The notes below the pieces were generated by a model. That model searched no databases. It was not told the DNA's origin and saw nothing but the letters and a program-made list of their open reading frames with translations. DNA of 64,000 nucleotides from Dehalococcoidia bacterium (GTDB lineage: Bacteria > Chloroflexota > Dehalococcoidia > SHYB01): contig CBDCOW010000003.1 in NCBI GenBank assembly GCA_965219875.1, forward strand, positions 1,276,479 to 1,340,478, given 5' to 3'. The translations under genes and the position numbers were made by a program. Positions 4,024 to 53,988 of the stretch are shown here, piece by piece; position 1 is the stretch's first letter; each line of letters begins with the position of its first letter.

Positions 4024-5250
4024 CTAGACGATGACCCCGCGCGCTTCGAGATCGCGCAGCTCCCTCGACCCGATTCCGAGCAGCTCGCCGTAGACGTATT
4101 CGTCGTCCTCGCCGGTCTTGGGGGGGCGGCGGTCGATGCGGCCCGGCGTCCGGCTGAACTTCCACGGCGCGCCCATCAGGAGCAGCGGATTGCCCGCCAC
4201 GTCTTCGGTGATTTCGAAGACGCCCCGCGCCTGCAGGTGCGGGTCGGCGAGGAGGTCGGCCGCCGAATAGGACGCGGTGGCGGGGACGCCCGCCGCCTGC
4301 AAGTCGTTCATCACCTCGATCTTGTCGCGCGGCGCTGTCCACGCCGCTATCTCAGCGTCGAGCTCGTGCTGGTGAGCATGGCGCGCCGGCTCCGTAGCGA
4401 AACGAGGATCCGTGGGCCAGTCCGGGCGGTCGAGGGCGGCGCAGAGGGCGCGCCATTCCTCCTCCGTCCCCACCGCGATCGAGAGCCATTGGTCGTCGCC
4501 CTTACAAGGGTAGACGCCGTGAGGCGCCATGTGGGGGTCGCGGTTGCCCATGCGCGGCTGATCGCGTTTGTTGACCACGGCGTCGAGGACGGCTTCGCCG
4601 ATGAAGCTCGTCATCACCTCGCGGCTGGCGGCGTCGATGTGACAGCCTTGCCCCGACTGACGGGCGTTCCACACCGCGGTAAGTAGCGCAAACGACGACG
4701 CCGTCCCCGATATCAGGTCTACGGGCAGCCGCAGTTCGACGGGAGGGCCATCCTCGTAGCCGGTGAGGTAGCCGGGGCCTCCAAGGGCGGAGAAGGCCTG
4801 CGCCAGCCCCTTGCCATGGCGCTCGGGCCCCGTCGCGCCGTGCGCCGACGCTGACAGCAGCACCAGTGCCGGGCTCAACGCGCGGAGATCGTCGTAGCCG
4901 AATCCGAGCCGCTCGAAGACGCCGGCCTGGAAGTTCTCGGCGACGGCGTCGGAGACCGCGATGATTCGCTTGGCGAGCGCCACGCCATCGGGGTGCTTTA
5001 GGTTCAGACGGACGCCCTTCTTGTTCACGTAGAGCTCGTCCAGCGAGAACCAGCGCGTCCCCTTCTCCGCCCGCTCCGAGTCGCCCGAAGGCCGCACCCC
5101 CCGGAAGATCGTGGGATGCGCCGCCGTCTCGGGCTTGATGACCTCCGCGCCCATGAGCGAGCAGAGGAAGGTGCAGTAGGGGCCGACGCCGGCCCAGGTG
5201 AAGTCGACAATACGGACGCCGCTAAGCGGCTGGGGGTCGAAGCCGCTCAC
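4024..5250 (-). CDS. family III CoA-transferase (CaiB/BaiF family)
   Basis: Begins MSGFDPQPLSGVRIVDFTWAGVGPYCTFLCSLMGAEVIKPE, the classic N-terminus of CaiB/BaiF CoA-transferases. 408 aa. Confidence 0.85.
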   Translation of the reverse strand: MSGFDPQPLSGVRIVDFTWAGVGPYCTFLCSLMGAEVIKPETAAHPTIFRGVRPSGDSERAEKGTRWFSLDELYVNKKGVRLNLKHPDGVALAKRIIAVSDAVAENFQAGVFERLGFGYDDLRALSPALVLLSASAHGATGPERHGKGLAQAFSALGGPGYLTGYEDGPPVELRLPVDLISGTASSFALLTAVWNARQSGQGCHIDAASREVMTSFIGEAVLDAVVNKRDQPRMGNRDPHMAPHGVYPCKGDDQWLSIAVGTEEEWRALCAALDRPDWPTDPRFATEPARHAHQHELDAEIAAWTAPRDKIEVMNDLQAAGVPATASYSAADLLADPHLQARGVFEITEDVAGNPLLLMGAPWKFSRTPGRIDRRPPKTGEDDEYVYGELLGIGSRELRDLEARGVIV

Positions 5251-9495: not shown

Positions 9496-9556
9496 GGCCT
9501 GTTCACGCGGGGAGGGAGCAGCGCCCTTGGGGCGCTCGCGCGCCTTGCGGCGCGCG

Positions 9557-10494: not shown

Positions 10495-10565
10495 AAGGGG
10501 ACGGGCGCCCACTAGGGGCGCCCCTACGGGAAAGGGCTAGATTCCCGCTTTCGCGGGAATGACAG
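10495..10565. repeat. REP-like double-hairpin unit (GGGCGCCCACTAGGGGCGCCCCTACGGG … TTCCCGCTTTCGCGGGAA)
   Basis: Two hairpins. The same unit occurs as a tandem pair at 19309-19459 and as partial copies at 48625 and 48855. Confidence 0.7.
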
Positions 10566-10580
10566 ATACGCAAGGGCTCC

Positions 10581-13140: not shown

Positions 13141-14838
13141 TTAGGCGTCGGACGCTTCCTCAGGGAGCGGATACACCAACGTCGTCGGGTTGTTGGAGTA
13201 CCAACCGAACCAGAACGCGTTGTTGGTGGGAATGCGGGCCAGGGCCGCCGAACCGTCCCCGGGCACCAGCGCGTCCTCCGTCACCCGCCAGGTGACGCCG
13301 TCGGAGTCGAGAATGGTGCGCGCGCCGAGCTCGCCGCCAAGCTCCTCTTGGAACGTGACGCGAACCCCTTCGCGGTCGGTCAGGTAGGCGCGCGCCCCGC
13401 CCTGCAGCGGGTCCGTTACGACGACGAGGCCGTTCTCGCCGATGGAATCGTTGAACACCGGCGCCTCCATGAGCGCTCGGAGGAGATAGGCCTTGGGGAC
13501 GCCTCCCAGCAGGACGCCGAGGACCTGCGCCTTGGTCGCCAGCAACTCGCTTTGCAGCCAGACGGGGAACATGGTGTCCGAGCTATTGAAGTAGTCGAAG
13601 TAGATCGCGAAGGGGTCGTCTTCCGGCACGTAGAAGGCGGCATCGTAGACACCGGTGTCTACGTGCAGCACGGTCGTGTCGGGGTGACTCGCCTTCCACT
13701 CGCCCCACGTCGTCAGGGTAATGGGGAGTTTCTTGAGCTTGATGCCGCTGTTGGCGAGCGGTCCGACGACGGGCTCGCCGAGGAACTGGCGCCACAGCGT
13801 CTCCGTCGCCCGGTCGTACATGAGCTTATTGCTGCGGTAGAGCATGCCGGAGGTGCCGAACTCGATGCGCTGGTCCGATATCTCGGGGACGTTGGTGGAA
13901 TACACGATTCCCGCGCCGCAGAGCGTTCAGTAGGCAAGGGCGAAGGGTTCGCCCCCCAGAGTGTCGTTGACCATTTCGTGGGCGTTGACGATGCGCAAGG
14001 GGTAGGCGCGGTGCTCGCCGTTAATGGAGACGCCGAAGACGCGGTCGCCGGGCGACAGATAATCGGCGTTGCCGGCCGAAATCGTCGGAGGATAGCGGAG
14101 GTCGGGGATGCCGTCCTTGCGGACGCCGCCCCAGGCGATCTCCTCGATGCGGATGCGCGCGCCCTCGCCGGTGCCCAAGAGGGCGGCCATGTCGGGGTCG
14201 ATGCGGGCGAGGAGCTCCTTCTTGAACTCGACGTATTCGGTCGGCGGGGTGACCTCGTCATGGCTTCCCAGCCAGATGACCCATTCCCGCCACTGCCGGT
14301 GGGTGTACGACTCACCCGAAAGGGACTGCAGCGCCTCGATGATGGTCTCGATGCCGTTTGGATCGAAGTAGGTGGGAGTGAAGAACATTTCCAGCAGCAC
14401 CGGGATGTAGCTCTGGTCGCCGCTGGCGCCCATCGTGGCGAAGGCGTCGATCTGGAGCAGGGCGTTGCTCCGAAGGCTGTCCCACATCAGTGCGTTGCGG
14501 TCGATCTCGATCTGGACTTCGGGAGGGTTGGTGGGACCGGGCGTGGACGTGGGCCGCGGAGTCGCCGTGGGCTCACTGGCGTCCGGGAGCGGCGACGCCG
14601 AGGGCGCTGCCGTGGGGGAAGCGCCGGTCGGCACGGCCGTGACGGTCGGCGCAGGGACTGCCGTCGAGCCGGCACCCTCCTCGACGGTCGGCGCGGGGGT
14701 CTCGGACGCGGCGGTGGGGCTAGGCACCGATGGCGGCGACGTGGGCTCCTCGCCGCCTGAGCAAGCGGCGGCGGCGAGCACCGCGGCCCCCGCCGCCATC
14801 ACGATCTTGAGTCGCCATGTGCCTGCGTTTGCGTTCAT
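13141..14838 (-). CDS. DUF3179-domain lipoprotein, putative selenoprotein (in-frame TGA = Sec at 13927-13929; UxxC motif)
   Basis: Track ORFs 13927-14838 and 13141-13905 are in the same frame (14838-13905 = 933 = 3x311), separated only by TGA plus 7 codons. The joined sequence reads …RAYPLRIVNAHEMVNDTLGGEPFALAY-U-TLCGAGIVYSTN…; the TGA sits where DUF3179 proteins carry the first Cys of a conserved YC-P/T-LCG motif. Lipobox signal peptide, Pro/Thr linker. 565 codons. Confidence 0.55.
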
Positions 14839-14914
14839 TTCGATCCCTGCCTAAGGATACGCCCTTGGCCGCGTTCGGGTTTCCAAAGCACGGACGCGCA
14901 TTGCGCGCGGCGTG

Positions 14915-16672
14915 CTAGGCGTTCGACGCTTCCTCAGGGAGCGGATACACCAGCGTCAGCGGGTAGTTGGAGTACCAGCCGAACCAGAACGCGTTGTTGG
15001 TGGGAATGCGGACCAGGGGGGCCGAGCCGTCGTCGGGTACGAGCGCGTCGTCGGTCACCCGCCAGGTGACGCCGTTGGAGTCGACGAGGGTACGCGCGCC
15101 GAGTGGGCCGCCGAGATCCTCCTCGAAGGTGACGCGGACGCCGTCGCGGTCGGCCAGGTAGGCGCGCGCGCCGCCATGCAACGGCTCCGTTACGACGACG
15201 AGGCCGTTCTTGCCGATGGAGTCGTTGAACACCGGCACATCCGTGAGCGCGCGGAGGAGATAGGCCTTGGGGACGCCGCCCAGCAGGACCCCGAGCACCT
15301 GCGCCTTGGTCGCCAGTGCCTCGCTTTGCAGCCAGACAGGGAACATCGTACGCGAGCTATTGAAGTAGGTGTAGTAGATCGCGGATGGGTCGTCTTCCGG
15401 CACGTAGAAGATGGACTGGTAGACGCCCGTGATCTGGCTCAGCACGGTCGTGTCGGGGTGGCTCGCCTTCCACTCACCCCACGTCGTCAGCGTAATCGGT
15501 AGCTTCTTGAGTTTGATTCCGCTGCTGGCGAGCGGCCCAACGACGGGCTCACCGAGGAACTGGCGCCAGAGCGTCTCCGTCGCCCGGTCGTACATGAGCT
15601 TATTGCTGCGGTAGAGCATGCCGGAGGTGCCGAACTCGATGGGCTGGTCCGATATCTCGGGCACGTTGGTGGAATACACGATTCCCGCGCCGCAGAGCGT
15701 TCAGTAGGCGAGGGCGAAGGGTTCGCCCCCCAGGGTGTCGTTGACCATTTCGTGGGCGTTGACGATGCGCAGCGGGTAGGCGCGGTGCTCACCGTTGATG
15801 GAGACGCCGAAGACGCGGTCAGTGGGCATGAGGTAATCGGCACCGGGGTCGTCGGCCGGAATCGTGGGCGGGTACCGGAGGTCGGGGATCCCGTCCTTGC
15901 GGACGCCGCCCCAGACGATCTCCTCGACGCGGATGCGGTCTCCTTCCCCGATCCCCAGGAGGGCGGCCATGTCGGGGTCGATGCGGCCGAAGAGCTGCTT
16001 CTTGAACTGGACGAACTCGGTCGGCGGGGTGATCTCGTCATGCATTCCCAGCCAGATGATCCAATCGAGCCAATCGCGGCGGGTGTACTCCTCGCCGGTA
16101 AGGGACCGCAGCGCCTCGACGATGGCCTCTACGCCATTCGGATCGAAATAGGTGGGCGACCAGTACCACTCGAGCAGCACCGGGATGTAGCTCCGGTCGC
16201 CGCTGGCGCCCATCGTCGCGAAGGCGGAGACCTGGAGCAAAGGTTCGTTCTCAAGGCTTTCCCACATCAGAGCGTTGCGGCCGGCCTCGATCTGGGCCGG
16301 CGGGAGCGTGGGACGGGGCGTGGCGATGGGCGCTGGGGCTGCGGTCGGCTCAACGACGGGTGGAAGCGGCGTTGGTGAGGGGCGCGGGCCCGCCGGAGAG
16401 GCGGCGGGCGTCAGGGTTGGCGCGGCGGTGGCGGCCGGCGAGGTGGGAACGGCAGTTGCCGCCGGTCCGGAAGACGGAGCGGTCGGCGCAGGAACATCGG
16501 TCGGGGAGCCACCCGCGTCCGGGGACGTTGTGGCGGTCGCTGACGGGGCGGTGGGGCTGGGCTCCGGCGGCGAGGGGCCCACGTCGCCGCCGGAGCAGGC
16601 GGCGACCGCGAGTACGGCGGCTCCTGCCGCCGTCACGATCTTGAGCCGCCATGTGCCTGCGCTTGCTTTCAT
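14915..16672 (-). CDS. DUF3179-domain lipoprotein paralog, putative selenoprotein (in-frame TGA = Sec at 15701-15703)
   Basis: Same architecture as 13141-14838. 16672-15679 = 993 = 3x331, so the two track ORFs are in one frame. The nucleotide context around the TGA is identical (…GGEPFALAY-TGA-TLCGAGIVYSTNVPEISDQ…). Lipobox is VAAC. 585 codons. Confidence 0.55.
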
Positions 16673-16810: not shown

Positions 16811-17644
16811 GTGCCCGACGTCATCTACGAGAAAAACCCCGAGGGTCACTACGCCGTCTTCACTCTGAACCGCCCCGAGCGCCTCAACGCCATCGGGGGC
16901 GGCGTGAAGGAAGCACTAGCGGCGGCCCGCGCCGACTTCGAGGCGGATAGCGAGATGCGCTGCGGCATCGTCACCGGCGCGGGGCGCGCCTTCTGCGCCG
17001 GGGCCGACCTGAAGGAGATGGCGGAGAACAACACGCGGCGGCGCAAGATTCAGGACGACTTCGAGGCGGGCGTCATTTCTCAGGCGGAACGCGACCAGGC
17101 GCTGGGGGTCACCTTTCCCAGCGATCTGAGCTTCTTCGGCTTTTCGCGGAGCTCGAAGCCGTTCGTCGCCGCCGTCAACGGGCTGGCCGTGGGCGGCGGC
17201 ATGGAGCTTAGTCTCGATTGCGACATCCGCATCGCCTCGACGGAGGCCTACTTCGGCCTCTACGAGGTGAAGCGCGGGATCATCGCCGGCTACGCCGTGC
17301 AGCACCTGCCCCGCCTGATTCCGCTGGGCGAGGCGATGTACATGCTCCTCACCGGCGACCGGATCGCCGTCGAGGACGCGCTCCGCAACCGCCTGGTGCA
17401 TGAGATCGTCGAGCCGGACCGCCTCATGCCCCGCGCCGTCGAGATCGCCGAGATGATCGCCGCCAACGCCCCGCTCTCCATTCAAGGCACGAAGGCGATG
17501 GCCTCCACCTGGCGCCTCATGGGAATGGAAGAGACGAAGCGGGTCGCCGACTGGGTCATGCGCTACCTCGGCGAGAGCGACGACTCCAAGGAGGGCCCGC
17601 TGGCCTTTGCTGAAAAGCGCGAGCCCCGGTGGACGGGGCGCTGA
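16811..17644 (+). CDS. enoyl-CoA hydratase/isomerase (crotonase fold)
   Basis: GTG start with a GGAGG RBS. FTLNRPERLNA…FCAGADLKEM is the crotonase signature. Confidence 0.85.
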   Translation: MPDVIYEKNPEGHYAVFTLNRPERLNAIGGGVKEALAAARADFEADSEMRCGIVTGAGRAFCAGADLKEMAENNTRRRKIQDDFEAGVISQAERDQALGVTFPSDLSFFGFSRSSKPFVAAVNGLAVGGGMELSLDCDIRIASTEAYFGLYEVKRGIIAGYAVQHLPRLIPLGEAMYMLLTGDRIAVEDALRNRLVHEIVEPDRLMPRAVEIAEMIAANAPLSIQGTKAMASTWRLMGMEETKRVADWVMRYLGESDDSKEGPLAFAEKREPRWTGR

Positions 17645-17683
17645 CCCCGCGCCATAGGAAAGCCATTCTCTGAAAGGACCGCC

Positions 17684-18517
17684 ATGCCCGATCTCGTCTA
17701 CGAGAAGTTCCCCAAGCAGCACTACGCCACCTTCACCATGGACCGGCCCGAACGGCTGAACGCCGCGGGCCGCCGGCTCAAGATCGAGTGGGAGGAGGCG
17801 CTGCAGGACTTCGAGGCCGACACTGAGATGCGGTGCGGCATCGTCACCGGCGCTGGCCGCGCCTTCTGCGCCGGCGCCGACTTGAAGGAGATGGCCGAGG
17901 ACAACGCCGCGCGCCAAGCCGTCGAGGCCGAGTATGCCGCCGGCGAGATCACCCTCGAACGCCGCGACGAACGCCTGCGGGAGCTTGCTCCGCCGCAGGT
18001 GGACAACTTCCGCATCTCATTCCACCCCAAGCCGTTCATCGCCGCCGTGAACGGCCTCTGCATCGGCGGGGGCATGGAGCGCACCATGGCCTGCGACATC
18101 CGCATCGCCTCGACGGAGGCTTACTTCGGCCTGTTCGAGGCCAAGCGCGGCATCCTCGCCGGCTACGGCATCATGCATCTGGCGCGGCTGATGCCCTACG
18201 GCGACGCCATGTACCTACTCCTCACCACCGACCGCATGAGCGCGGAGGAGGCCCTGAAGTCAGGTTTCGTCCGCGAGGTCGTCGAGCCGGAGCGCCTCAT
18301 GCCCCGCGCCGTCGAGATCGCCGAGATGATCGCCGCCAACGCCCCGCTTTCCATTCAAGGCACCAAGGCGATGGCTGCCACTTGGCGGCACATGGGCATG
18401 GAAGAGGTGCGCCGCGCCAACGATTGGGTCGCCCGCTACGTCCTCGAATCGGACGACGCGAAAGAGGGGCCGCGCGCCTTCTCCGAAAAGCGCGAGCCGA
18501 ACTGGACGGGCCGCTAG
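17684..18517 (+). CDS. enoyl-CoA hydratase/isomerase (crotonase fold), tandem paralog
   Basis: FTMDRPERLNA…FCAGADLKEM. Much of the sequence matches 16811-17644. Confidence 0.85.
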   Translation: MPDLVYEKFPKQHYATFTMDRPERLNAAGRRLKIEWEEALQDFEADTEMRCGIVTGAGRAFCAGADLKEMAEDNAARQAVEAEYAAGEITLERRDERLRELAPPQVDNFRISFHPKPFIAAVNGLCIGGGMERTMACDIRIASTEAYFGLFEAKRGILAGYGIMHLARLMPYGDAMYLLLTTDRMSAEEALKSGFVREVVEPERLMPRAVEIAEMIAANAPLSIQGTKAMAATWRHMGMEEVRRANDWVARYVLESDDAKEGPRAFSEKREPNWTGR

Positions 18518-19204: not shown

Positions 19205-19308
19205 GTCCACCCTCCCGGCGCCGACTAGACGGGCGCCTCGCAGCGCCATTATAGGCGCGCCATTCCCTCGCCCGTCGGAGACCTGTGCAAACGTTAGAGG
19301 GAGCGGGC

Positions 19309-19459
19309 GCCCACAAGGGGCGCCCCTACGGGGAGGGATGGATTCCCCGCGTTCGCGGGAATGACGGGTAGGGACAGGAGGGAGCGGGTGCCCCCAGGGA
19401 GCGCCCCTACGGGAGGGATGGATTCCCGGTTTCGCGGGAATGACGGGTCGACGCGGCGC
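19309..19459. repeat. tandem pair of ~75-bp REP-like double-hairpin units
   Basis: GGGAGCGGGCGCCCACAAGGGGCGCCCCTACGGGGAGGGATGGATTCCCCGCGTTCGCGGGAATGACGGGTA is repeated twice with minor variation. Confidence 0.75.
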
Positions 19460-26345: not shown

Positions 26346-26510
26346 GGAGACCTTTTCGTAACCGGGGTGACTGACCGCGAGGGTGGCGGGCTTCGATATC
26401 CCGTGGCGGTTGCGAGGGGCCCCTCATCTCAATCTTCTCCCGTGGGGAGAAGAGGCAAGACCTCCCGGCCCCACCCATGCTTGCCCGCAGGCGGGTTGCG
26501 CAAAGGTCTC
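26346..26510. mobile_element. MITE-like element, copy 1 (TIR GGAGACCTTTTCGTAACC / GGTTGCGCAAAGGTCTC)
   Basis: About 165 bp bounded by imperfect terminal inverted repeats. An internal hairpin CTTCTCCCGTGGGGAGAAG is present. Near-identical copies lie at 33672-33837 and 41945-42109, with a partial at 48697-48757. Confidence 0.6.
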
Positions 26511-33671: not shown

Positions 33672-33837
33672 GGGGCCTTTGCGTAACCGGGGCTGACTGG
33701 CGCGAGGGTGGCAGGCTTCGATGGCCCATTGGTGGTTGCGAGGGTGCCCCTCATCTCAATCTTCTCCCGTGGGGAGAAGAGGCAAGACCTCCCGGCCCCA
33801 CCCATGCTTGCCCGCGGGCGGTTGTGCAAAGGTCTCC
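33672..33837. mobile_element. MITE-like element, copy 2
   Basis: Same internal sequence and TIRs as 26346-26510. Confidence 0.6.
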
Positions 33838-40136: not shown

Positions 40137-40332
40137 CACCGCACAAGAGGCCGCCCGTCCCACTATTCCCGCGAGAAGCGGGGCTCTAGCCCTTATTTGG
40201 GCATGGCACTCGAACCTGCCAGTCACCGCAAGTAGTAGTTGCGCAGAGGTCTCCGTAGAGAGCGCGGATGGCGTTCAGTAGGCGACAGGGCAGCTCGCGC
40301 TCCTTGGCCGTGGTGGGGATTGCTCTGGTACG

Positions 40333-41944: not shown

Positions 41945-42109
41945 GAGACCTTTGCGTAACCGGGGTGACTGACCGCGAAGGTGGCGGACTTCGATAACCC
42001 GTGGCGGTTGCGAGGGTGCCCCTCATCTCAATCTTCTCCAGTGGGGAGAAGAGGCAAGACCTCCCGGCCCCACCCATGCTTGCCCGCGGGCGGTTGTGCA
42101 AAGGTCTCC
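41945..42109. mobile_element. MITE-like element, copy 3
   Basis: TIR AGAGACCTTTGCGTAACC … GGTTGTGCAAAGGTCTCC. It is flanked by CTCTCCCCCAGA/GGGGGAGAG palindromes. Confidence 0.6.
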
Positions 42110-42988: not shown

Positions 42989-43064
<76 letters not shown>

Positions 43065-43082: not shown

Positions 43083-44240
43083 GTGCGTCGTAAGCAGCGT
43101 CTGGCATTTGTTGTCACCGCGGCGGGCGTGCTCAGCCTGGTGCTGAGCGCTTGCGCTTCGGGCGGCGGGGTCGAGGGGCTGGAGTCGACGGTGGACGCGC
43201 GCGTCGCCACGGCGCTGGCGTCGCAGCCGACGGCGACGTCGCAGCCTATGCCGCCACCCCAGCCGACGGTCACGCCACAGCCGACATCGACGCCACAGCC
43301 CGCAGCCACGCCGCAACCGACGCCGACGCCACAGCCGACATCGACGCCACAGCCGCTCGCCGTGGTCGGAAGCGACGGTGACGTGGTCGTCTTTCCGACG
43401 CCGTTGCCCACCGCGACGCCGGTGATCGTGCCGCCCCCGCCGCCGCCGGCGACGCCGCAGCCGACCGCCACGCCGCAACCGACGGCGACACCCGCGCCGA
43501 CCGTGACACCGCAGACCATCCCCAGCCCTGGAGCGGCGCCGCCAACGGTGCGCCCGACGGCCACCCCACGGCCCACGCCCACGCCGACAGCAACCGCCGC
43601 GCCGCCAGCCCTTGGCGACATCCTGGAGAGTGTCACGCGGGCGACGGTACTCATCGAGACCCTTGAGAAGGCCGGGTCGGGGTTCTTCATCTCAGACGAC
43701 ATCATCCTGTCCAACGCCCACATCTTCGACCAAGACGACGTGGGTTCCCCGTTCGTGCTCCGGAATAAATTCAACGAGAAGATCGAAACGGTGCTCGTCT
43801 ACCGGGGCGTGCTGGTCGACGTGGCCGTGCTGGAGCGCGTGTCGCTGGGCCAAGTCGCGGGGCCGGAAACGACGACGATTCCGAGAGGCGCGCCGGCGCG
43901 CCTCGGGGACCGGGTTTTCGTCGTCGGCTTTCCAACGAGGTCGCTGCAGGCCGCCGCGCCAACGATCGTCATCACTGCGGGCATCGTGTCGGCCACGCCG
44001 TTCCTGCAAGGGCTCAAGTTCTCCAACGAGGAGCCCAGGCCGATGAGGTGGGTGCAGACCGACACGCCGTTCAACTCCGGCAACAGCGGGGGGCCGTTGG
44101 TCAACGAACAGGGTGAAGTCGTCGGCATCGTGACTTGGAAGTTCGTCGGCGCCACGATCGACGGGCTGAACATGGCGCTGCCCATCGACACCGCGCTCTC
44201 GGTGATCCCCAAGTCAATCTACGACCACGACGCGGAGTAG
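43083..44240 (+). CDS. secreted trypsin-like serine protease lipoprotein (S1 family) with Pro/Thr-rich linker
   Basis: GTG start. A lipobox (LSAC), a QPT/PQP repeat linker, and the catalytic motif GNSGGPLV are present. Confidence 0.75.
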   Translation: MRRKQRLAFVVTAAGVLSLVLSACASGGGVEGLESTVDARVATALASQPTATSQPMPPPQPTVTPQPTSTPQPAATPQPTPTPQPTSTPQPLAVVGSDGDVVVFPTPLPTATPVIVPPPPPPATPQPTATPQPTATPAPTVTPQTIPSPGAAPPTVRPTATPRPTPTPTATAAPPALGDILESVTRATVLIETLEKAGSGFFISDDIILSNAHIFDQDDVGSPFVLRNKFNEKIETVLVYRGVLVDVAVLERVSLGQVAGPETTTIPRGAPARLGDRVFVVGFPTRSLQAAAPTIVITAGIVSATPFLQGLKFSNEEPRPMRWVQTDTPFNSGNSGGPLVNEQGEVVGIVTWKFVGATIDGLNMALPIDTALSVIPKSIYDHDAE

Positions 44241-47607: not shown

Positions 47608-48876
47608 GGCAAACGCCTCCTTGGGAGCGGGTCGTCCCGTCCCCGTGAGTGTACGGAAGGGGTCCGCTTCAGTCTACAGAGGTTCGGCCGGCCTTCCCCG
47701 TCCCGGCCCTCTCTCAGTCTCTCCCAGGGGGAGACCTTTGCGTAACCTGAGCCTAACCGCACGAGGCGCTCAGGGGGGAGGGAGCGGGCGATTCGCGAAT
47801 CGCCCCTACGGGAGGGGATAGGGCGAGCGGAGTTGGCAGCCCTTGCGTCCGTTCGGCGGCGCTCGGAACCCGTGGTCTCCGTTCGTTGCGTCCGCGCCTC
47901 ACCACGCAACGCGCCTTGGGGCGCGCCTCGGCTCAGGCCCGCCCCGGAGGGGACGGACGAGCGGGGCTCGACCGTTGGCGCGGCTGACCGTCCTCGCGCT
48001 TTCGCGCCGCGTCTGCCGTGCAAGACCGCGGAGTCCGGCGACCTTCGCCGGGTTGGTGGCCCTTCGCCTCTCTCCTTAGGAGAAGGCTGCCTTGGCTAGG
48101 CTGTTGGTTCTCGGTGCGGCGTTCTTTGATTTGTACGGCCTTGGGGGGGCCGGGCCACGCGGGGCGGTCGTTGCGCGCGCCGTCTGTTATGACGGAGCGG
48201 ACGGTCCGGTCCACCACGCTGGGTGAAGCGAGGCCGGCGGTTCGCGCACCCCGCGGGCAAGGCGGGGATAGGTCCCCCGGGCCGCGGTAAGGCGGCGCGG
48301 GGTCTTTGCCGTCCGCAGCGGTTACGGAGGCAGGTCGTCGCCGCGTGGCCGGCGAGAGGCAGGACGACCCTCCGGGCTTATGGTCCGTTGGGAGGACGGG
48401 CCGGGATGGACTTGCCGCCACGGTGGCGGTGTCCACGGATAGCGCCGCACCGAGAAGGGGGCGTGTGTGGTCGGTTGGGGCAGGGTCCTCCTTTGGGTGA
48501 TCTGGCGGCCCGCGTTCCGCGCGTCCGCGGCTGGCGGGCCTGGGAAACATATGTTCTCCAATGATGGTAGGGGAGGGGTTTGGGGGTTGTCAAGGGCGGT
48601 GTGGCGGGCGGGGGCGGAGGGGGACGGGCGCCCACAAGGGGCGCCCCTACGGGAGGGGTGCCGGCGGGCGGCACGGGGTGGCGGGCTGCGATGGGCGTTG
48701 GTGGTTGCGAGGGGGCCCCTCATCTCAGTCTTCTCCCGTGGGGAGAAGAGGCAAGAAGGCGCCCTGCGGGCACCCGCGCGCCTAGCGGCGCGCGCCCTCT
48801 CTCAGTCTCCCCCAGAGGGAGAGAGGTTTAGGTGGGCTCCGCCAGCCGGAGGGGAGGGCACCCACAAGGGGCGCCC

Positions 48877-50034
48877 CTACGGTATCTCGGCGCCGGCGAT
48901 GAGGGTGGCGGCGGCGGCGAACATGCCGCCGGGACCGTGGGCGATGCCGAACTTGGCATTGGGAACCTGACGCTCGCCGGCCGCGCCGCGCAGCTGCCGC
49001 ACGAGCTCGATCATGGTGTACATGCCGTACATGCCGGAGTGACTGTAGGAGAGACCGCCGCCGTTGGTGTTCATGGGGAAGTCGCCGCCGGGGGCGGTGC
49101 GCCCGTTCTCGACGAAGGGGCCGCTCTCGCCTTTGCCCACGAAGCCGAGGTCTTCCAGCGCGGCCATCGGGGTGAAGGAGAAGGCGTCGTAGAGCTCGGC
49201 GACGGCGATGTCCTTGTGGGTAACCCCAGACATGTCGAAGGCGGAGCGCCCCGAGATTACCGCCGCGTCCGACGTCGTCGCGTCGCGGATGTTCGAGATG
49301 CCGTAGTGCGCCGTGGCGTGCCCCGTCCCGAGGACGTAAACCGGCGGCTTGGGCAGCGCCGTCGCCTCGTCGGCCCGGGTGAGGACGAGCGCGCCGCCGG
49401 CGTCGGTGACCAGGCAGCACATGAACAGGGTATAGGGCCAGCAGACCATGCGAGAGTTTAGAACGTCGTCGATGGTGATGTCGTCCTTCATCACGGCTTT
49501 GGGGTGCATTTGGGCCCACTTCCGGGTCGAGACCGACACTTCCGCCAGTTGTTCCAGCGTGGTGCCGTACTCGTGCATGTGGCGTGTGGCCGGCAGGGAG
49601 AACGTTGTCGGTGCGCCGAAGGTGCCGTAGGGGGCCTCGAACTGGCCTCCTGGGAGGCCGGGGGCGCCGGCAGGGGGGGCGACGCCGATGCGGGAGCGGC
49701 CGCTTTCGCCGTGGGAGATGACGGCGACGTTGATGAGGCCCGCGTCGAGGGCCAGCATGGCGTGCTCGACCATGGCGATGAAGGAGCAGCCGCCCATCTG
49801 GGTGTTGTTGTAGAGGCGGGGCGTGATCCCCAGGTACTCGCCGAGCTGGGTCATCGGGACGCCGGGGCAGAGCAGGCCGTCCACGTCGCTCAGCTTCAGG
49901 CCCGCGTCGTCGAGCGCGTTGCGAATGCCCTCGGCGTGCAGCGTGATCATAGAATGGCCGGGAAGCGTCCCCAGCCGGTCCGTCTCGCAGGCGCCGACGA
50001 TGGCGACCTTGCCGCGAAGGTCTTTGGTGGGCAT
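48877..50034 (-). CDS. SCP-x-type thiolase-fold protein (thiolase/retro-aldolase, Ltp-like)
   Basis: 385 aa beginning MPTKDLRGKVAIVGACETDRLG. A thiolase fold with a downstream DUF35 partner. Confidence 0.75.
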   Translation of the reverse strand: MPTKDLRGKVAIVGACETDRLGTLPGHSMITLHAEGIRNALDDAGLKLSDVDGLLCPGVPMTQLGEYLGITPRLYNNTQMGGCSFIAMVEHAMLALDAGLINVAVISHGESGRSRIGVAPPAGAPGLPGGQFEAPYGTFGAPTTFSLPATRHMHEYGTTLEQLAEVSVSTRKWAQMHPKAVMKDDITIDDVLNSRMVCWPYTLFMCCLVTDAGGALVLTRADEATALPKPPVYVLGTGHATAHYGISNIRDATTSDAAVISGRSAFDMSGVTHKDIAVAELYDAFSFTPMAALEDLGFVGKGESGPFVENGRTAPGGDFPMNTNGGGLSYSHSGMYGMYTMIELVRQLRGAAGERQVPNAKFGIAHGPGGMFAAAATLIAGAEIP

Positions 50035-50076: not shown

Positions 50077-50493
50077 CTAGGCGGGACGGAACTTGGGCAG
50101 GGTGACCTCGTCGGTCACCGCGACGTACTCGACGCGCACCGGCATGCCGCAGGCGATCTTGGCGGGGTCGGGGTCGACGCCGATGACGTTGCTCATCATC
50201 CGCGGGCCTTCGTCGAGCTCGATGATGGCGATGACGTAGGGCTCGCCGTTCATGTAGGGCAGCTTGCGGTGGCTTATGCCGAAGGAGTAGACCTTGCCGT
50301 TCCCGCTGGCCTCGAACCACTCCACATCCCACGAAAAGCAGCTCGGACAGAACGGGCGGGGGTAGAAGTACGGCCCGCAGGCGGCGCAGCGCTGCAACAC
50401 GAGCTTGCCCTGGTTCACGCCGTCCCAAAAGGGCTTGGTCTCGGGGGTGGGCTTGGGCAGGGGGCCGGAGTACGCGGCGGCTTGGTCGGGCAT
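50077..50493 (-). CDS. DUF35 OB-fold/Zn-ribbon protein (thiolase partner)
   Basis: ATG at 50493. It has a Zn ribbon (CAACGPYFYPRPFCPSC) and an OB fold. Confidence 0.7.
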   Translation of the reverse strand: MPDQAAAYSGPLPKPTPETKPFWDGVNQGKLVLQRCAACGPYFYPRPFCPSCFSWDVEWFEASGNGKVYSFGISHRKLPYMNGEPYVIAIIELDEGPRMMSNVIGVDPDPAKIACGMPVRVEYVAVTDEVTLPKFRPA

Positions 50494-50599
50494 GGGGGGA
50501 CCTCGCTGGGAGCGCCGCCCTTCTGCGTGCGGCGCCGGGGAGAGTCTAGCCGCAAGGAGAGCGGCGCCGCAACGCGGGAGGGGTCTGCGGCGCATGGCG

Positions 50600-50830
50600 C
50601 ATCCCGCCTCCCCCCGCCCTCACCCCAACCCTCTCCCAGCGGGAGAGGGGGCAGGACCCCCTCAGCCGCCCCAGCCCTCTCACTCGTCTCTCCCAAGGGA
50701 GACCTTTGCGTAACTCGGCGGGCGGGCTTTAGCAAGGTCGCGCGGCCCCCGCCTCCCCCCGCCCTCACCCCAACCCTCTCCCAGCGGGAGAGGGGGCAGG
50801 ACCCCGCGCCGCCCTCCCTTTCCCAAGGCC
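50600..50830. repeat. ~140-bp tandem repeat array (about 1.5 units) sharing the GAGACCTTTGCGTAAC end and CCCTCTCCCAGCGGGAGAGGG palindrome
   Basis: Direct reading of the sequence. It belongs to the same family as the array at 52205-52875. Confidence 0.7.
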
Positions 50831-51149
50831 AGCGGGCGGCGTTCTTCCCCTCGACGAAGGTTTGCAAAGGTCTTCAAGGGGAGAGAGGCTTGAGGTGCCC
50901 AGAGGGGGAGAGGCTTAGGGCGGTCGGCGTTGACCGGGCGGGGTGCGCCGACTACGGTGTAGCGGCTATGCGCGTCGATGCTGTGTCCCACGCCGCGGGC
51001 TTGGGAACCCTCTCTCAGTCTCCCCCAGAGGGGGAGAGGTCTACGGTGGCTCCCCCAGAGGGGGAGAGGTCTACGGTGGCTCCCCCAAAGGGGGAGAGGT
51101 CTGAGGCGGCCCTCTCTCAGCCTCTCCCAGGGGGAGAGAGGTTTAGGGA

Positions 51150-51834
51150 TGCGCCGGAGGGGGAGAGGAGGCGGGTCGTCGTCATCGACGCGGTGCGGGC
51201 CTCCTCAACCATTGCCCACGCCGTCGCCTCCGGGGCGAAGCGAGTGGTGCCCGTCGCCGCCATTGAGGAGGCGTGGGAGCTGCGCCAGCGGCTCGGACGA
51301 GAGCGGCCCCTGCTTGGCGGCGAGCGCGGCGGCCTCAAGATCGAGGGGTTCGACCTGGGGAACTCGCCGGAGGCCTACACGCCGCGCGCCGTTGGGGGAC
51401 GGACGGTGATCATCACCACTACCAACGGGACCCAGGCCATGCGCGCCGGCGAACGGGTCGGCCGCGTCGTCGTGGGGGCGTTCGTCAACCTCCCCGCCGT
51501 CGTTGCGCGCTTGCTGGATTGGAGCGAAGACGTCCTGCTGGCACCGGTGGGCCGCGAAGACGCCCCGGTGCTCGACGACACCGTCTGCGCCGGCATGTAT
51601 GCCGACGCCCTCCTCGACGCCGGCTTCGACCTCAGCCCCGCCGCCGAGGAGCTGCGCCGCGCCTATCTCCCCTATGCGGGGCGGTTGCTCGACGCCCTCG
51701 CTGAGTCGGCGTCGGGACGCGCCCTCATCGCCGTCGGCCTGGGGAGCGACCTGCGCTACTGCGCCCAGGTCGGCGTCCTCGACTCCGCGCCGCTGATAGA
51801 CGGGGGCGCGATTTGCGAGGGGCGGGCGGCGTGA
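51150..51834 (+). CDS. 2-phosphosulfolactate phosphatase family protein (ComB-like)
   Basis: …VVVIDAVRASSTIAHAVASG…GFDLGNSPE… matches the ComB family. There is no canonical in-frame start because the 5' end abuts the repeat array, so the start coordinate is approximate. Confidence 0.55.
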
Positions 51835-52205
51835 CGGCGCTCCTGCTCGTTGGAGGGGGCGGCTTCCTGGGGTCGATCGCCCGCTACGGCCTCTCCAAAG
51901 CCGTGCACCGCTGGCTGGGCGACGCGGCGTTCCCCTACGGCACGTTCGCGGTGAACATGATCGGCTGCCTCCTGATCGGGCTGCTCCTGGGGATCATCGA
52001 GCAGCGCGGCGGCGGGTCGAACCTCCGCGCCTTCGCCGCCATCGGCGTCCTGGGGGGCTTCACCACCTTTTCCGCCTTCGGCTACGACACGCTCGTCCTC
52101 TTCCGCGACGGGCGCGTCCCGGCGGGGCTGGCCAACGTCGTGCTCCAGCCGGTGCTGGGGCTGCTCGCGGCGTGGGCGGGGTGGAGCGCGGCGAAGCTAG
52201 TCTAG
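51831..52205 (+). CDS. crcB: fluoride ion channel CrcB/FluC
   Basis: GTG overlaps the comB stop. GSIARYGLS…GFTTFSAF motifs. About 124 aa with 4 TM helices. Confidence 0.75.
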   Translation: MTALLLVGGGGFLGSIARYGLSKAVHRWLGDAAFPYGTFAVNMIGCLLIGLLLGIIEQRGGGSNLRAFAAIGVLGGFTTFSAFGYDTLVLFRDGRVPAGLANVVLQPVLGLLAAWAGWSAAKLV

Positions 52206-52875
52206 GGGGGCGAGACCGGTCTCAGGCTCTCCCAAGGGAGAAGCTTTGCGTAACTGGGGTGGCTGAGGCGAGGATGGCGGGCTTCAGCAAGGTCGCGCGG
52301 CCCCCGCCTCCCCCCGCCCTCACCCCAACCCTCTCCCAGCGGGAGAGGGGGCAGGCCCCCCCCAGCCGCCCCAGCCCTCTCACTCGTCTCTCCCAAGGGA
52401 GACCTTTGCGTAACTCGGCGGGCGGGCTTTAACAAGGTCGCGCGGCCCCCGCCTCCCCCCGCCCTCACTCCAACCCTCTCCCGGCGGGAGAGGGGGCAGG
52501 ACCCCCCAGCCGCCCCAGCCCTCTCACTCGTCTCTCCCAAGGAAGACCTTTGCGTAACTGGGCGGGCGGGCTTCAGCAAGGTCGGGCGGCCCCCGCCTCC
52601 CCCCGCCCTCACCCCAACCCTCTCCCAGCGGGAGAGGGGGCAGGACCCCCCAGCCACCCCCGAGCCCTCTCTCAGTCTCTACAAGGGGAGACCTCGGCGT
52701 AACTCGGCGGGCGGGCTTCAGCAAGGTCGCGCGGCCCCCGCCTCCCCCCGCCCTCACCCCAACCCTCTCCCAGCGGGAGAGGGGGCAGGCCCCCCCAGCC
52801 GCCCCAGCCCTCTCACTCGTCTCTCCCAAGGGGAGAGAGGCTTAAGGTGCCCAGAGGGGGAGAGGCTTTAGGTGG
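52205..52875. repeat. ~140-bp tandem repeat array (about 4.5 units)
   Basis: The unit is …CTCTCCCAAGGGAGACCTTTGCGTAACTCGGCGGGCGGGCTTTAACAAGGTCGCGCGGCCCCCGCCTCCCCCCGCCCTCACCCCAACCCTCTCCCAGCGGGAGAGGGGGCAGGACCCCCCAGCCGCCCCAGCCCTCTCACTCGT…, repeated head-to-tail. Confidence 0.8.
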
Positions 52876-52971
52876 GTGGCGGTGGGCGCTCCCGCGTCGT
52901 GCCCTATAATGCCGGGGCGCGGACGCCGCCGCGTCCAAGCGGATACGACCACGACGCAATCGCGGGGACCC

Positions 52972-53988
52972 GTGACCTCCACCGACACACCGAGCACGCC
53001 GAACGACGGCGCGCGCAAGGCTTCGCCCCCGAAGATCGTCTCGCTCGGCGGCGGGACGGGGAGCTACAACCTGCTCTCCGGTCTCAAGCACCGCGACTGC
53101 CGGCTCACCGCGGTCGTCACCACCATGGACAGCGGCGGCAGCTCGGGCCGCCTCCGCGACGAGTTCGGTCACCTGCCCCCCGGCGACTTGCGCCAGTGCC
53201 TCCTGGCACTCAGCCCCGACGACCACTCGGGGATGGTGCTGCGCGGGCTGTTCAACTACCGCTTCGACAAGGGCAACGGCCTCGACGGCCACAGCTTCGG
53301 CAACCTGTTCTTGACGGCGCTGACCGAAATTACCGGAAGCGCCGAACGGGCCATCAACGAGATGGGCCGGCTGTTGAACATCAAGGGGCGCGTCCTGCCG
53401 GTGACGCTGGCCAACGCCGACCTCTGCGCGCGGCTGCGCGACGGGTCGGTGATCATGGGGGAGACGAACATTGATCGGCGCAGCGCCGGATCCGCCGCGC
53501 CCATCGACTACGTCTATCTTGAGCCATCGACCGCGCAGGTACATCCGCCGACAGCGGCGGCGATCGAGGAGGCCGACGCGATCGTGATCGGCCCCGGCGA
53601 CCTCTACACCAGCATCGTTCCCAACCTGCTCGTCGAAGGCGTGACCGAGGCGCTGGCACGCTCTCGCGGCGTCCGCATCTACGTCTGCAACCTCATGACG
53701 AAGCCTGGCGAGTCGGACGGCTTCAAGGCCTCGGATTTCATCCGCGAGGTGGGAAGGTACCTGGGGCCGCGGGCGGGGCTCGACTGCGTGATCGTGAACG
53801 ACCAGCCTCTGCCGGGCCCCATCGCGGAACGCTATCGCGGCGAGCGGTCGACGCAGGTCGTGTTCGACGAGGAGGCGTGCCGCGCCTTGGTGGACGCCGT
53901 GCTGCCCCGCCCCCTCGCCGCCGTGGGCGGCGGCCTCGTCCGGCACGACCCCCACCGACTCGCCGCCGCCGTTTTCGAAGCGCTGTAA
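52972..53988 (+). CDS. YvcK/CofD-family protein (UPF0052; gluconeogenesis factor / 2-phospho-L-lactate transferase superfamily)
   Basis: GTG at 52972 with a GGGGA RBS. KIVSLGGGTGSYNLLSGLK glycine-rich N-terminus and LPPGDLRQCL motif. The track ORF start at 52876 lies in the repeat. Confidence 0.6.
   Translation: MTSTDTPSTPNDGARKASPPKIVSLGGGTGSYNLLSGLKHRDCRLTAVVTTMDSGGSSGRLRDEFGHLPPGDLRQCLLALSPDDHSGMVLRGLFNYRFDKGNGLDGHSFGNLFLTALTEITGSAERAINEMGRLLNIKGRVLPVTLANADLCARLRDGSVIMGETNIDRRSAGSAAPIDYVYLEPSTAQVHPPTAAAIEEADAIVIGPGDLYTSIVPNLLVEGVTEALARSRGVRIYVCNLMTKPGESDGFKASDFIREVGRYLGPRAGLDCVIVNDQPLPGPIAERYRGERSTQVVFDEEACRALVDAVLPRPLAAVGGGLVRHDPHRLAAAVFEAL

Follow-up and report, generated by a model that had tools for sequence, protein, structure and literature searches.

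The repeat arrays that bracket the comB-crcB gene pair in the window (the whole 64-kb stretch of Dehalococcoidia DNA analysed) are ordinary pile-ups of known kinds of element, namely MITE, REP/BIME-like and Rickettsia-RPE-like, and both blocks are likely to be accumulated selfish non-coding repeat DNA rather than a device serving comB-crcB (Table 1). Since presence or absence and copy number vary among syntenic loci, the arrays are regarded as recent, dispensable insertions, with their dispensability in relatives suggesting that they are neutral. The one unusual feature of the locus is that the same hairpin family lies in frame inside comB.

Table 1. Coordinates of the comB-crcB locus and related repeats, with arrays from other loci.
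Feature	Position	Strand	Details
Upstream block, part 1	50597..50698	+	Partial unit without TIR: hairpin P2a, linker, P1 left half
Complete MITE copy (~177 bp)	50699..50875	+	Sits in loop of hairpin P1
Terminal module, upstream block	50876..50919	+	P1 right half and second P1-like half (AAGGGGAGAGAGGCTTGAGGTGCCCAGAGGGGGAGAGGCTTAGG); also ends downstream array
Putative comB promoter	50930..50958	+	TTGACC (50930-50935), 17 nt, TACGGT (50953-50958)
comB-like 2-phosphosulfolactate phosphatase gene	50968..51834	+	288 codons, start ATG 50968
Intragenic P1-type palindrome segment	51001..51168	+	In frame; encodes ...TLSQSPPEGERSTVAPPEGERSTVAPPKGERSEAALSQPLPGGERFRDAPEGE...
crcB fluoride channel gene	51831..52205	+	124 codons; Pfam PF02537, E 1.7e-26
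Downstream array	52206..52832	+	P1-like left half (52219-52237), then four head-to-tail units
Terminal module, downstream array	52833..52875	+	P1 right half and second P1-like half; matches 50876-50919
Conserved TATAAT 5' of YvcK/CofD-like gene	52905..52910	+	Alignment of relatives
YvcK/CofD-related gene	52972..53988	+	Probable GTG start; Pfam PF01933; NCBIfam TIGR01826, 319 bits
Related MITE, 164 bp	26347..26510	+	Both TIRs, intergenic; sister copies 33672-33836, 41945-42108
Other arrays (period x copies)			L108 127 x 2.7; L035 124 x 3.2; L054 72 x 5.5
Other arrays (period x copies)			L055 62 x 3.3; L105 86 x 5; L110 101 x 2.4

Downstream of crcB, Tandem Repeats Finder (TRF) identified a head-to-tail array at 52276-52832 with a period of 145, 3.9 copies, 91% matches and a score of 961. 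The array unit is a mosaic of the left end of an IS5-family-derived MITE (TIR GGAGACCTTTGCGTAAC) and REP-like hairpins of the form CCCTCTCCC-N3-4-GGGAGAGGG. When phased by the TIR, the units lie at 52238/52240-52398 (159 nt), 52399-52542, 52543-52687 and 52688-52832, the last three with pairwise identities of 89-94%. Each unit opens with the MITE left TIR (52238, 52399, 52543 and 52688), carries hairpin P2 inside and ends in a P1 left half followed by AAGG. Against these four left TIRs no right TIR was found in the downstream array at up to 3 mismatches, and because they carry a left TIR only the internal units are MITE fragments rather than intact MITEs. Only two P1 right halves are present in the array, with 52825-52874 at its end detected by TRF as a tandem of period 25 x 2.

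Upstream of comB lies a related block of ~330 bp, in which 50603-50805 is 98% identical to 52303-52505 of the downstream array over 203 nt. Its partial unit contains hairpin P2a (50629-50649, CCCTCTCCC-AGC-GGGAGAGGG) and the P1 left half GTCTCTCCC (50686-50694) followed by AAG. The MITE that follows has a left TIR at 50699-50714, an internal hairpin P2b at 50774-50794 and a degenerate right TIR, GGTTTGCAAAGGTCTTC, at 50859-50875, with AAG(G) duplicated on either side (50695-50698 and 50876-50879). A 58-nt stretch occurs identically at 50603-50660 and 50748-50805, in the sequence just 5' of the MITE and in the MITE interior, at a spacing of 145 bp. Throughout both blocks the units and hairpins run head to tail in a single orientation.

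The initial annotation had described ~140-bp head-to-tail arrays around comB-crcB containing the palindrome CCCTCTCCCAGCGGGAGAGGG and the MITE TIR half GAGACCTTTGCGTAAC, and both motifs are present, in a 145-bp array downstream and the related block upstream. The 1.5 units that it placed upstream do correspond to a repeat block but not in composition, which is a partial unit (50597-50698) followed by a complete MITE (50699-50875). Its statement that the arrays are neither CRISPR nor coding was borne out, in that a CRISPR array was rejected because the 145-bp units abut without unique spacers and a coding repeat protein was rejected because a period of 145 nt cannot be divided by 3 and close relatives lack the array entirely.

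Both hairpins are REP-like and GC-rich, P1 having the consensus (G)TCTC(T/C)CCC-N3-4-GGG(G/A)GAGA and P2 being CCCTCACCCCAACCCTCTCCC-AGC-GGGAGAGGGGGCAGG. The palindrome CCCTCTCCCAGCGGGAGAGGG is found at 50629, 50774, 52329, 52474 (one mismatch), 52618 and 52763, and the P2 palindrome pattern gave 13 matches over both strands, equal to 7 distinct sites, compared with 0.01 in shuffles. Likewise GAGACCTTTGCGTAAC occurs at 50699, 52399, 52543 and 52688, with further copies within or next to other MITE-like elements of the window, making 12 matches compared with 0.24 expected. P1-type copies lie at 9554, 26571, 41919, 47704, 48792, 51005, 51107 and 52662, all of them intergenic except those within comB, and 75 P-type palindromes were found in about 1 Mb of Chloroflexota loci. 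P1 follows CGTC in the upstream copy and three downstream units, and AGTC in the fourth downstream unit and the intragenic copies; the P2 hairpin has no GTAG or CGTC tag. Exact-pattern scans of metagenome contigs for the unit junction and, separately, for the P2 hairpin plus its flank returned 0 matches. The array units form strong local hairpins with 9-bp GC stems, whole-unit single-strand folding energies are no better than shuffles (z-scores -0.9 and +0.2) and the intragenic repeats fold weakly better than shuffles (z = -2.0), such that folding support is limited to the local hairpins.

The MITE belongs to a widespread family, its 16-mer TIR having matches in more than 118 loci, almost all of them Dehalococcoidia/Chloroflexota MAGs. 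Within the window both TIRs are present in the copies at 26347-26510, 33672-33836, 41945-42108 and 50699-50875. The same TIRs delimit both MITEs of 121-165 bp and IS5-family insertion sequences of 1.2 kb in other Chloroflexota/Dehalococcoidia genomes, where inverted TIR pairs cluster at 121-122 bp and four pairs span 1179-1215 bp (L004, L032, L034 and L104). In L004 and L032, the two 1.2-kb elements examined, the TIR pair encloses an ORF of 322-341 aa with DDE_Tnp_1 and DUF772 domains, scoring 306 and 274 bits on NCBIfam NF033581 'IS5 family transposase' (cut-off 140); no autonomous insertion sequence with these TIRs was found within the 64-kb window. The family shows both TIRs, an autonomous partner, a target-site duplication and insertion polymorphism between related genomes, and the comparison suggests that it has been mobile in the source lineage. 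Non-coding tandem arrays of hairpin and MITE pieces, with other periods and phases, recur in other Chloroflexota loci (Table 1).

Among 90 TIR-bounded elements, 47 have flanks with pairing at 6 or more of the 8 positions (shuffled-partner control mean 14.6, maximum 23). A perfect 4-bp duplication in a single fixed register is present in 22 of the 90, and 18 of these combine it with a paired stem (control 0.86, maximum 4). Insertions of the IS/MITE family go into REP-like hairpin loops and duplicate about 4 bp of the loop, and the upstream block is one such MITE within a P1 hairpin, beside a P2-linker-P1 composite. IS5 itself targets the sequence motif YTAR, from which the hairpin-loop target here would differ.

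The comparison of copy number among relatives proposed in the initial annotation covered ten syntenic loci representing seven distinct alleles at 84-94% nucleotide identity, and it revealed variation in both presence or absence and copy number. Seven of the ten have no repeats in either spacer while keeping the same gene order, two carry one unit or one MITE, and one, compared on the downstream side, has no insert there. The spacer between the OB-fold gene and comB measures 474 bp in the window, 366 bp in L123 and 125-134 bp in L120, L121, L122, L025 and L126-L129, all of which lack 50590-50919. TATAAT follows the crcB end by 19 nt where the loci are free of repeats, by 217-254 nt in L123 and L124, and by 708 nt in the window. 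The downstream array is missing from L120, L122, L025 and L125-L128, with L123 and L124 having a single MITE at the crcB/yvcK site whose left junction is the same as in the window.

On the preferred reading, unequal crossing-over or replication slippage between the 58-nt repeats would expand an array. Because these repeats lie 145 bp apart, recombination or slippage would yield exactly the 145-bp period, and the arrays were probably expanded by unequal recombination between them. The downstream array would have begun as a single MITE in the crcB/yvcK spacer, as still seen in L123 and L124, and in this reconstruction its four units arose when that MITE underwent ectopic recombination or gene conversion with the upstream block. 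The recombination hotspot suggested in the initial annotation is favoured, as copy number varies and the two blocks share, besides the 203 nt at 98% identity, a terminal module of ~45 nt.

Each unit boundary reads as P1 left half, AAGG and left TIR, as would be expected had the array grown by serial or nested transposition in which each MITE entered the P1 hairpin of the previous copy, and the family demonstrably targets hairpin loops. Such a history predicts equal numbers of right and left junctions, whereas the downstream array has four left TIRs, zero right TIRs and two P1 right halves. In addition the arrays of other genomes differ in phase, with L108 repeating the MITE core without a TIR, which is compatible with arbitrary internal segments having been duplicated. 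Nested transposition is an unlikely explanation and, with left and right ends unmatched, was rejected as the sole origin of the array.

The GTG start of crcB overlaps the comB stop (GTGA), and homologous loci also call crcB at 124 aa. The comB promoter did not reach the consensus threshold of the promoter scan and is therefore no more than putative; it ends 9 nt before the ATG, with the upstream block ending about 10 nt 5' of the -35 element, and is conserved in five aligned loci (the window, L120, L122, L025 and L123). The YvcK/CofD-like gene had been reported to start right after the array, which is roughly right, with the TATAAT at 52905-52910 intervening before the probable GTG start at 52972; in repeat-free relatives this TATAAT lies 10 nt after the crcB stop. 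The downstream insertion replaces the sequence where a yvcK -35 element would lie. The promoter and terminator scan gave no site above thresholds and no T-tract terminators. At gathering thresholds Rfam matched only a tRNA in the whole window, permissive mode over 50400-53100 gave chance-level matches only, and no Rfam match in the window to the fluoride riboswitch (crcB motif) was found upstream of crcB.

The blocks lie exactly between transcription units, 5' of the putative comB promoter and from the crcB stop to the yvcK TATAAT, and together with the strong hairpins in the units this would suit functional cis-elements whose hairpins terminate, insulate or stabilise transcripts and co-regulate comB-crcB and its neighbours, as enterobacterial REP/BIME can. 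In Thauera, REP arrays are reported directly beside gene clusters, whose expression they may modulate (PMC3733652). The insulating or co-regulating role raised in the initial annotation is nonetheless unsupported and rather improbable, given that the same operon layout has repeat-free spacers in seven of the ten loci, copy number is free to vary among relatives, neither T-tract terminators nor an Rfam family was detected and whole-unit folding does not differ from shuffles. A lineage-specific effect of the arrays on comB-crcB or yvcK transcription is possible. As selfish repeat DNA, the insertions would have been tolerated because they left the yvcK -10 box and the putative comB promoter intact.

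Short-read assemblies break at repeats, and an identical 1.7-kb short-read contig (L001) has its ends at 50572 and 48854, each a repeat edge, as might be seen if the arrays were an assembly artefact of mis-joined or mis-counted repeats. This is very improbable, since the units differ by 6-18% whereas an artefact would give identical copies, the independent assemblies L123 and L124 carry related elements in the same two spacers and inside comB, and the comB reading frame is intact across the repeats. Least credible is a MITE-flanked composite mobile cassette that captured comB-crcB, for while 203-nt direct repeats of 98% identity with MITE ends bracket the pair, both flanking TIRs face the same way and the location of comB-crcB is constant across the ten syntenic loci, repeat-free ones included, between thiolase/OB-fold genes on one side and yvcK-luciferase-like-SDR-CoA-transferase genes on the other.

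The initial annotation held that comB lacks an in-frame canonical start, its 5' end running into the array; contrary to this, ATG 50968 is in frame and opens the N-terminus MRVDAVSHAAGL, these first 12-13 codons being conserved in homologues down to 48% identity. The gene has a normal start codon because the hairpin family sits in frame inside it, and the CTCCCCCAGAGGGGGAG-type palindromes reported at 50995-51140 are indeed present, the segment (51001-51168) lying within the coding sequence. It includes a tandem of 30 bp x 2.8 at 51020-51102 (98% match, TRF) with flanking copies at 51007 and 51107. Compared with repeat-free relatives the insert is a net gain of 144 nt (48 codons) without stops, positioned between the conserved N-terminus and the VVVIDAVRASSTI core. 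The enzyme itself matches Pfam PF04029 (E 9e-60, residues 69-277) and PDB 1vr0 (residues 67-281), and keeps all 22 invariant columns of a 68-sequence alignment.

Relatives have 0, 21, 33 or 42 extra codons at the insert site, compared with 48 in the window. From the ATG to the VVID core, five alleles measure 66, 129, 165, 192 and 210 nt, all multiples of 3 and stop-free, the four in-frame insert lengths being related by descent and so not fully independent events. Maintenance of the frame is not universal, since in L125 the ancestral comB ATG is out of frame. The AlphaFold2 model of ComB (mean pLDDT 88.7) has pLDDT 47-56 at about residues 20-60, about 95 at residues 1-10 and in strand 2-5, and above 90 outside the insert, and the insert is predicted to form a disordered loop. 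A protein search with the 57-aa insert peptide gave 0 matches. One other intragenic hairpin, in L028, was found in the collected loci by a scan that demands 240 nt of coding flank on both sides and is blind near gene starts such as that of comB. Separately from the growth of the arrays, P1 hairpins would have invaded comB at about codons 12-67 and expanded in multiples of three, which gave the enzyme an extra disordered loop behind its first beta-strand but did not destroy it.

For annotation, comB should be taken as a full-length gene of 288 codons from ATG 50968; gene callers started it too late in five of seven relatives with complete comB (L122, L123 and L126-L128), placing the start within the repeat or at the VVID core. 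These repeats also explain contig breaks in short-read assemblies of the group. The locus offers a natural allele series of 0, 1 and 4 units for the growth of MITE/hairpin mosaics into tandem arrays, comB demonstrates that an enzyme gene can harbour a hairpin repeat, and the family points to a hairpin-loop-targeting IS5-family element in Chloroflexota, while the view of comB-crcB function is unchanged by the arrays. More tentatively, and with considerable doubt, the REP-like hairpins of this uncultivated Dehalococcoidia lineage may behave like RPEs, expanding and contracting in frame to give length-polymorphic disordered loops in a conserved enzyme. The IS5-family DDE transposase may in turn recognise the structure of a hairpin loop and not its sequence, in two or more hairpin families that are unrelated.

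A review covers prokaryotic MITEs of IS5-family origin (PMC10969869), and the MITEs described here resemble them in being small (121-177 bp), non-coding, mostly intergenic and polymorphic in presence among close relatives, with 16-17-bp TIRs shared with 1.2-kb IS5-family elements and short target duplications. They differ in that the array units are left-end-plus-core fragments joined to host hairpins. In keeping with REP/BIME sequences (PMC2817692, PMC3733652), the hairpins are GC-rich imperfect palindromes of 20-40 nt with many intergenic copies and mosaic arrays, and as with the REPs of enterobacteria and pseudomonads, of which intragenic units are known, they serve as insertion-sequence targets, IS5-family examples of REP-targeting insertion sequences having already been listed (PMC1525189). 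BIME clusters contain REPs in alternating orientation (PMC2817692), unlike the strictly head-to-tail units here. REPs carry a GTAG or CGTC tetranucleotide at one end (PMC3733652), a tag that P1 and P2 do not consistently have; these genomes also contain another hairpin family, CGTC-ATTCCCGC-N4-5-GCGGGAAT-CCA, which fits the published CGTC-type description (PMC3733652). Rickettsia palindromic elements are in-frame insertions in protein-coding genes (PMC10969869; PMC3733652), and comB likewise carries a palindromic repeat in frame in a conserved metabolic enzyme gene, at a predicted surface or disordered loop, with the protein apparently not destroyed. Unlike RPEs, the unit in comB measures about 30 nt and has undergone tandem amplification of its own, with a copy number that differs among relatives, and only one gene within the window is affected.

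The downstream array, between the fluoride channel gene crcB and the yvcK/cofD-like gene, was called by Tandem Repeats Finder at 52276-52832 (period 145 bp, not divisible by three; 3.9 copies, 91% matches, score 961) in a window of 68% G+C. An independent repeat search matched 50603-50805, 5′ of comB (the ComB-like 2-phosphosulfolactate phosphatase gene), to 52303-52505 with 98% identity over 203 nt. Against an expectation of 0.01, the palindrome CCCTCTCCCAGCGGGAGAGGG has six + strand copies in the two blocks; GAGACCTTTGCGTAAC was expected 0.24 times and has four copies in the blocks and eight in the rest of the window. The initial annotation had described repeat arrays bracketing comB-crcB, and the tandem-repeat call, the 203-nt match and both motif counts confirm that description along with its coordinates and motifs. 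Phased from the terminal inverted repeat (TIR), the downstream array comprises four units, of which units 2-4 share 89-94% mutual identity, each running from the TIR GAGACCTTTGCGTAAC through a short GGCGGGCTT...CCCGCC segment, the REP-like hairpin P2 (CCCTCACCCCAACCCTCTCCC-AGC-GGGAGAGGGGGCAGG) and a C-rich linker to the left half of a second hairpin type, P1 (CCCTCTCACTCGTCTCTCCC), followed by AAGG. P1 is completed only past the last unit (GGGGAGAGAGG...), where there follows a ~45-nt module, the same module that ends the upstream block at 50876-50919. A TIR pattern search found no right TIR in the downstream array. Between the crcB stop and the array, GAGACCGGTCTC (52213-52224; GAGCCCGGTCTC in L123 and L124) is a perfect palindrome identical to the left TIR's first 6 nt joined to the right TIR's last 6 nt, and may be a footprint, a minimal element or chance.

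Ten syntenic loci with 84-94% nucleotide identity were reached via ComB homologues, all with the same gene order, in which a thiolase and an OB-fold gene lie on one strand and comB-crcB-yvcK/cofD-like, luciferase-like, SDR and CoA-transferase genes on the other. Spacers were measured from fixed anchors, from the OB-fold gene to the comB ATG and from the crcB end to TATAAT (Table). In repeat-free loci 10 nt separate the crcB stop from TATAAT, while L123 and L124 carry one MITE at the exact site of the four units in the window, all three sharing the left junction GGGGGGCGAG(A/C)CCGGTCTCAGGCTCTCCCAAGG|GAGACC. Copy number, which the initial annotation had proposed to compare among related strains, was thus found to vary across the ten loci. 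Because relatives show empty sites and different copy numbers, the arrays are recent lineage-specific insertions, copy-variable and dispensable for the gene cluster. The ends of an identical short-read contig (L001), at 48854 and 50572, both fall on repeat edges.

Table. Repeat features and spacer lengths in the window and in loci from other genomes (L-numbers)
Feature or locus	Coordinates	Length or period	OB-fold gene-comB ATG (bp)	crcB end-TATAAT (nt)	ATG-VVID core (nt)	Extra codons	Remark
L120, L126-L128			125-134	19	66	0	
L121, L129			125-134		66	0	crcB end-TATAAT region off contig
L025			125-134	19	129	21	
L122			125-134	19	165	33	
L123			366	217	192	42	
L124				254	192	42	contig begins inside OB-fold-comB spacer
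L125				19			
Window			474	708	210	48	
Downstream unit 1	52238/52240-52398	159 nt					
Downstream unit 2	52399-52542						
Downstream unit 3	52543-52687						
Downstream unit 4	52688-52832						
TIR-bounded element	26347-26510						both ends; intergenic
TIR-bounded element	33672-33836						both ends; intergenic
TIR-bounded element	41945-42108						both ends; intergenic
Non-coding hairpin array	L108 386-726	127 bp					2.7 copies; no TIR in unit
Non-coding hairpin array	L035 5261-5651	124 bp					
Non-coding hairpin array	L054 2332-2728	72 bp					
Non-coding hairpin array	L105 735-1165	86 bp					

Three elements in the window carry both TIRs and measure 164-165 bp. A scan in which a single genome stood for each species found the TIR 16-mer in >118 stretches, nearly all from Dehalococcoidia/Chloroflexota MAGs, with inverted pairs clustering at 121-122 bp (other sizes 84 to about 290 bp) and four pairs spaced 1179-1215 bp. 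In the two long pairs inspected (L004 and L032) the TIRs enclose a 322-341-aa ORF with DDE_Tnp_1 and DUF772 domains, scoring 306 and 274 bits against NCBIfam NF033581 'IS5 family transposase' (cut-off 140 bits). This identifies the TIR as belonging to an IS5-family insertion sequence and to MITEs derived from it. Solo TIR matches that lack a partner at MITE distance or closer occur at 40238-40253 (-) and 47731-47746 (+), the copy at 47704-47746 being preceded by the P1 left half and resembling the array junctions.

The TIR elements are flanked by two hairpin halves with the loop duplicated, as in ...ATTCCCGC-GAAA-[G GAGACC...GGTCTC C]-GAAA-GCGGGAAT... and ...CCCTCTCCC-TGGC-[...]-TGGC-AGGGAGAGGG. 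Scored in one fixed register against shuffled partners, the flanks were complementary at at least 6/8 positions in 47 of 90 elements (control mean 14.6, max 23), and 18 of 90 combined paired flanks with a perfect 4-bp duplication (control 0.86, max 4). The targets are two unrelated hairpin families, one of the CGTC-ATTCCCGC...GCGGGAAT-CCA type, which fits CGTC-tagged REPs as described in PMC3733652, and the other of the CCCTCTCCC...GGGAGAGGG type, which includes P1 and P2. Insertion sequences targeting REPs, IS5-family members among them, have been documented (PMC1525189). The element at 50699-50875 is a MITE of this sort: it occupies a P1 loop, is flanked on either side by AAG(G), and its right TIR (50859-50875) is degenerate. 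Two further palindrome families, GGGCGCCC-ACAA-GGGGCGCCC and GGATTCCCGC-TTTC-GCGGGAATGAC, are interspersed in the window (10496-10568, 19298-19449, 48619-48691 and 48851-48882); the latter looks like a reverse-read CGTC-tagged REP, and in other genomes the MITE family inserts into it more often than into any other target.

In the upstream block CCCGCCTCCCCCCGCCCTCACCCCAACCCTCTCCCAGCGGGAGAGGGGGCAGGACCCC occurs twice, 145 bp apart, before the MITE (50603-50660) and inside it (50748-50805), and unequal crossing-over or slippage between these copies would duplicate the exact 145-bp array segment. Downstream unit 1 consists of the 5′ part of an older L124-type MITE up to GGCGGGCTTC, then upstream-type sequence; this switch, together with the 98% identity over 203 nt and the shared terminal module, suggests that the two spacers underwent ectopic recombination or gene conversion with each other before the array expanded. 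Such repeat recombination or slippage is most likely the route by which the array formed, nested transposition being disfavoured by the lack of right ends in the downstream array. Array formation is a recurrent property of these hairpin/MITE repeats, since similar tandem arrays with other periods and phases are seen elsewhere in Chloroflexota (L108, L035, L044, L047, L054, L055, L105 and L110), the four tabulated having 2.7-5.5 copies at 93-98% identity in Dehalococcoidia/Chloroflexota genomes. The L108 unit equals the TIR-less core of the 164-bp MITE of the window.

The initial annotation held that comB lacks a canonical start; this is refuted by an in-frame ATG at 50968, from which the product starts MRVDAVSHAAGL, an N-terminus common to close 240-aa homologues (P0003, P0004, P0010) and recognisable (MRI/VxV...A.AL) in homologues down to 48% identity. 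Within comB lies a tandem repeat at 51020-51102 (30 bp x 2.8, 98% matches; Tandem Repeats Finder), and the window ComB has 48 extra residues, translated P1-type palindromes, between residue ~12 and RRVVVIDAVRASSTI. All tabulated ATG-core distances are divisible by three and stop-free. As read from the sequence, the 30-nt unit has no stop in any of its three + strand frames, so that the length of the insert, not its openness, is informative. The in-frame variants are moreover related by descent, and selection for frame is for both reasons plausible with only moderate support. In L125 (1938-2030), comB has a ~24-nt deletion of codons 4-12 that leaves the ancestral ATG 83 nt from the core and out of phase with it; the call for this gene starts at a GTG within the repeat. 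Either this comB is truncated at its N-terminus or assembly collapsed the repeat. The window ComB keeps 22/22 invariant columns of a 68-sequence alignment, and an AlphaFold2 model (mean pLDDT 88.7, pTM 0.85) places a confident strand at residues 2-5 (pLDDT about 95) with pLDDT 47-56 over ~residues 20-60; PDB 1vr0 aligns with residues 67-281. Conservation, model and structural match are evidence that the protein is intact despite the insert. A 1040-aa DNA-methylase-like ORF with a DPPYN motif in a Nitrospirales MAG (L028 2966-6088 (-)) holds in frame ...FPLPLGEGQGEGD..., the translated CCCTCTCCC-AGT-GGGAGAGGG hairpin (palindrome 4764-4784), and may be a second such intragenic case in a different phylum.

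A putative comB promoter, TTGACC-17 nt-TACGGT, ends 9 nt 5′ of the ATG and is kept in five aligned loci (window, L120, L122, L025 and L123), scoring below the promoter-scan threshold. The insertions sit just outside these putative -35/-10 elements and the yvcK TATAAT, and would be tolerated because these conserved elements are spared. Insulation or co-regulation by the arrays, as initially suggested, is unsupported, with no Rfam family matching the repeats, no terminator-like sites in the scan, no structure beyond shuffles on whole-unit folding and most relatives without arrays; no evidence speaks for a dedicated role. Transcription of yvcK may be affected locally, because the sequence 5′ of its -10 box is replaced, and comB-crcB could plausibly be deleted or duplicated through the 203-nt, 98% direct repeats. 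The crcB GTG start overlaps the comB stop (GTGA, 51831-51834) and no fluoride riboswitch is detectable 5′ of comB or crcB (50400-51830), which suggests that crcB shares a transcript with comB and is not under riboswitch control.

Elsewhere in the window, an 18-nt periodic repeat at 43203-43523 (about 7 + 4 copies, CAGCCGACGGCGACGCCA-like) within an ORF just 3′ of a tRNA gene (42989-43061) probably specifies a low-complexity linker rich in Pro, Thr and Gln. Segment pairs at 13142-16143 and 17156-18515 (repeat families D3, D4, D5 and D10; 77-87% identity, spacing 1774-1780 bp and 873 bp) look like paralogues produced by tandem gene duplication.

The points worth keeping are the length-polymorphic in-frame comB repeat and the loop-targeting IS5-family element. 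Strictly defined, BIMEs have alternating units, and the head-to-tail units here fall outside that definition. The array components match IS5-derived MITEs (PMC10969869) and REP-like hairpins with mosaic clusters (PMC2817692, PMC3733652), the TIR family matches REP-targeting insertion sequences (PMC1525189) and the comB insert matches RPE-like in-frame intragenic palindromes (PMC10969869, PMC3733652), all known kinds of repeat, here in an uncultivated Dehalococcoidia lineage.
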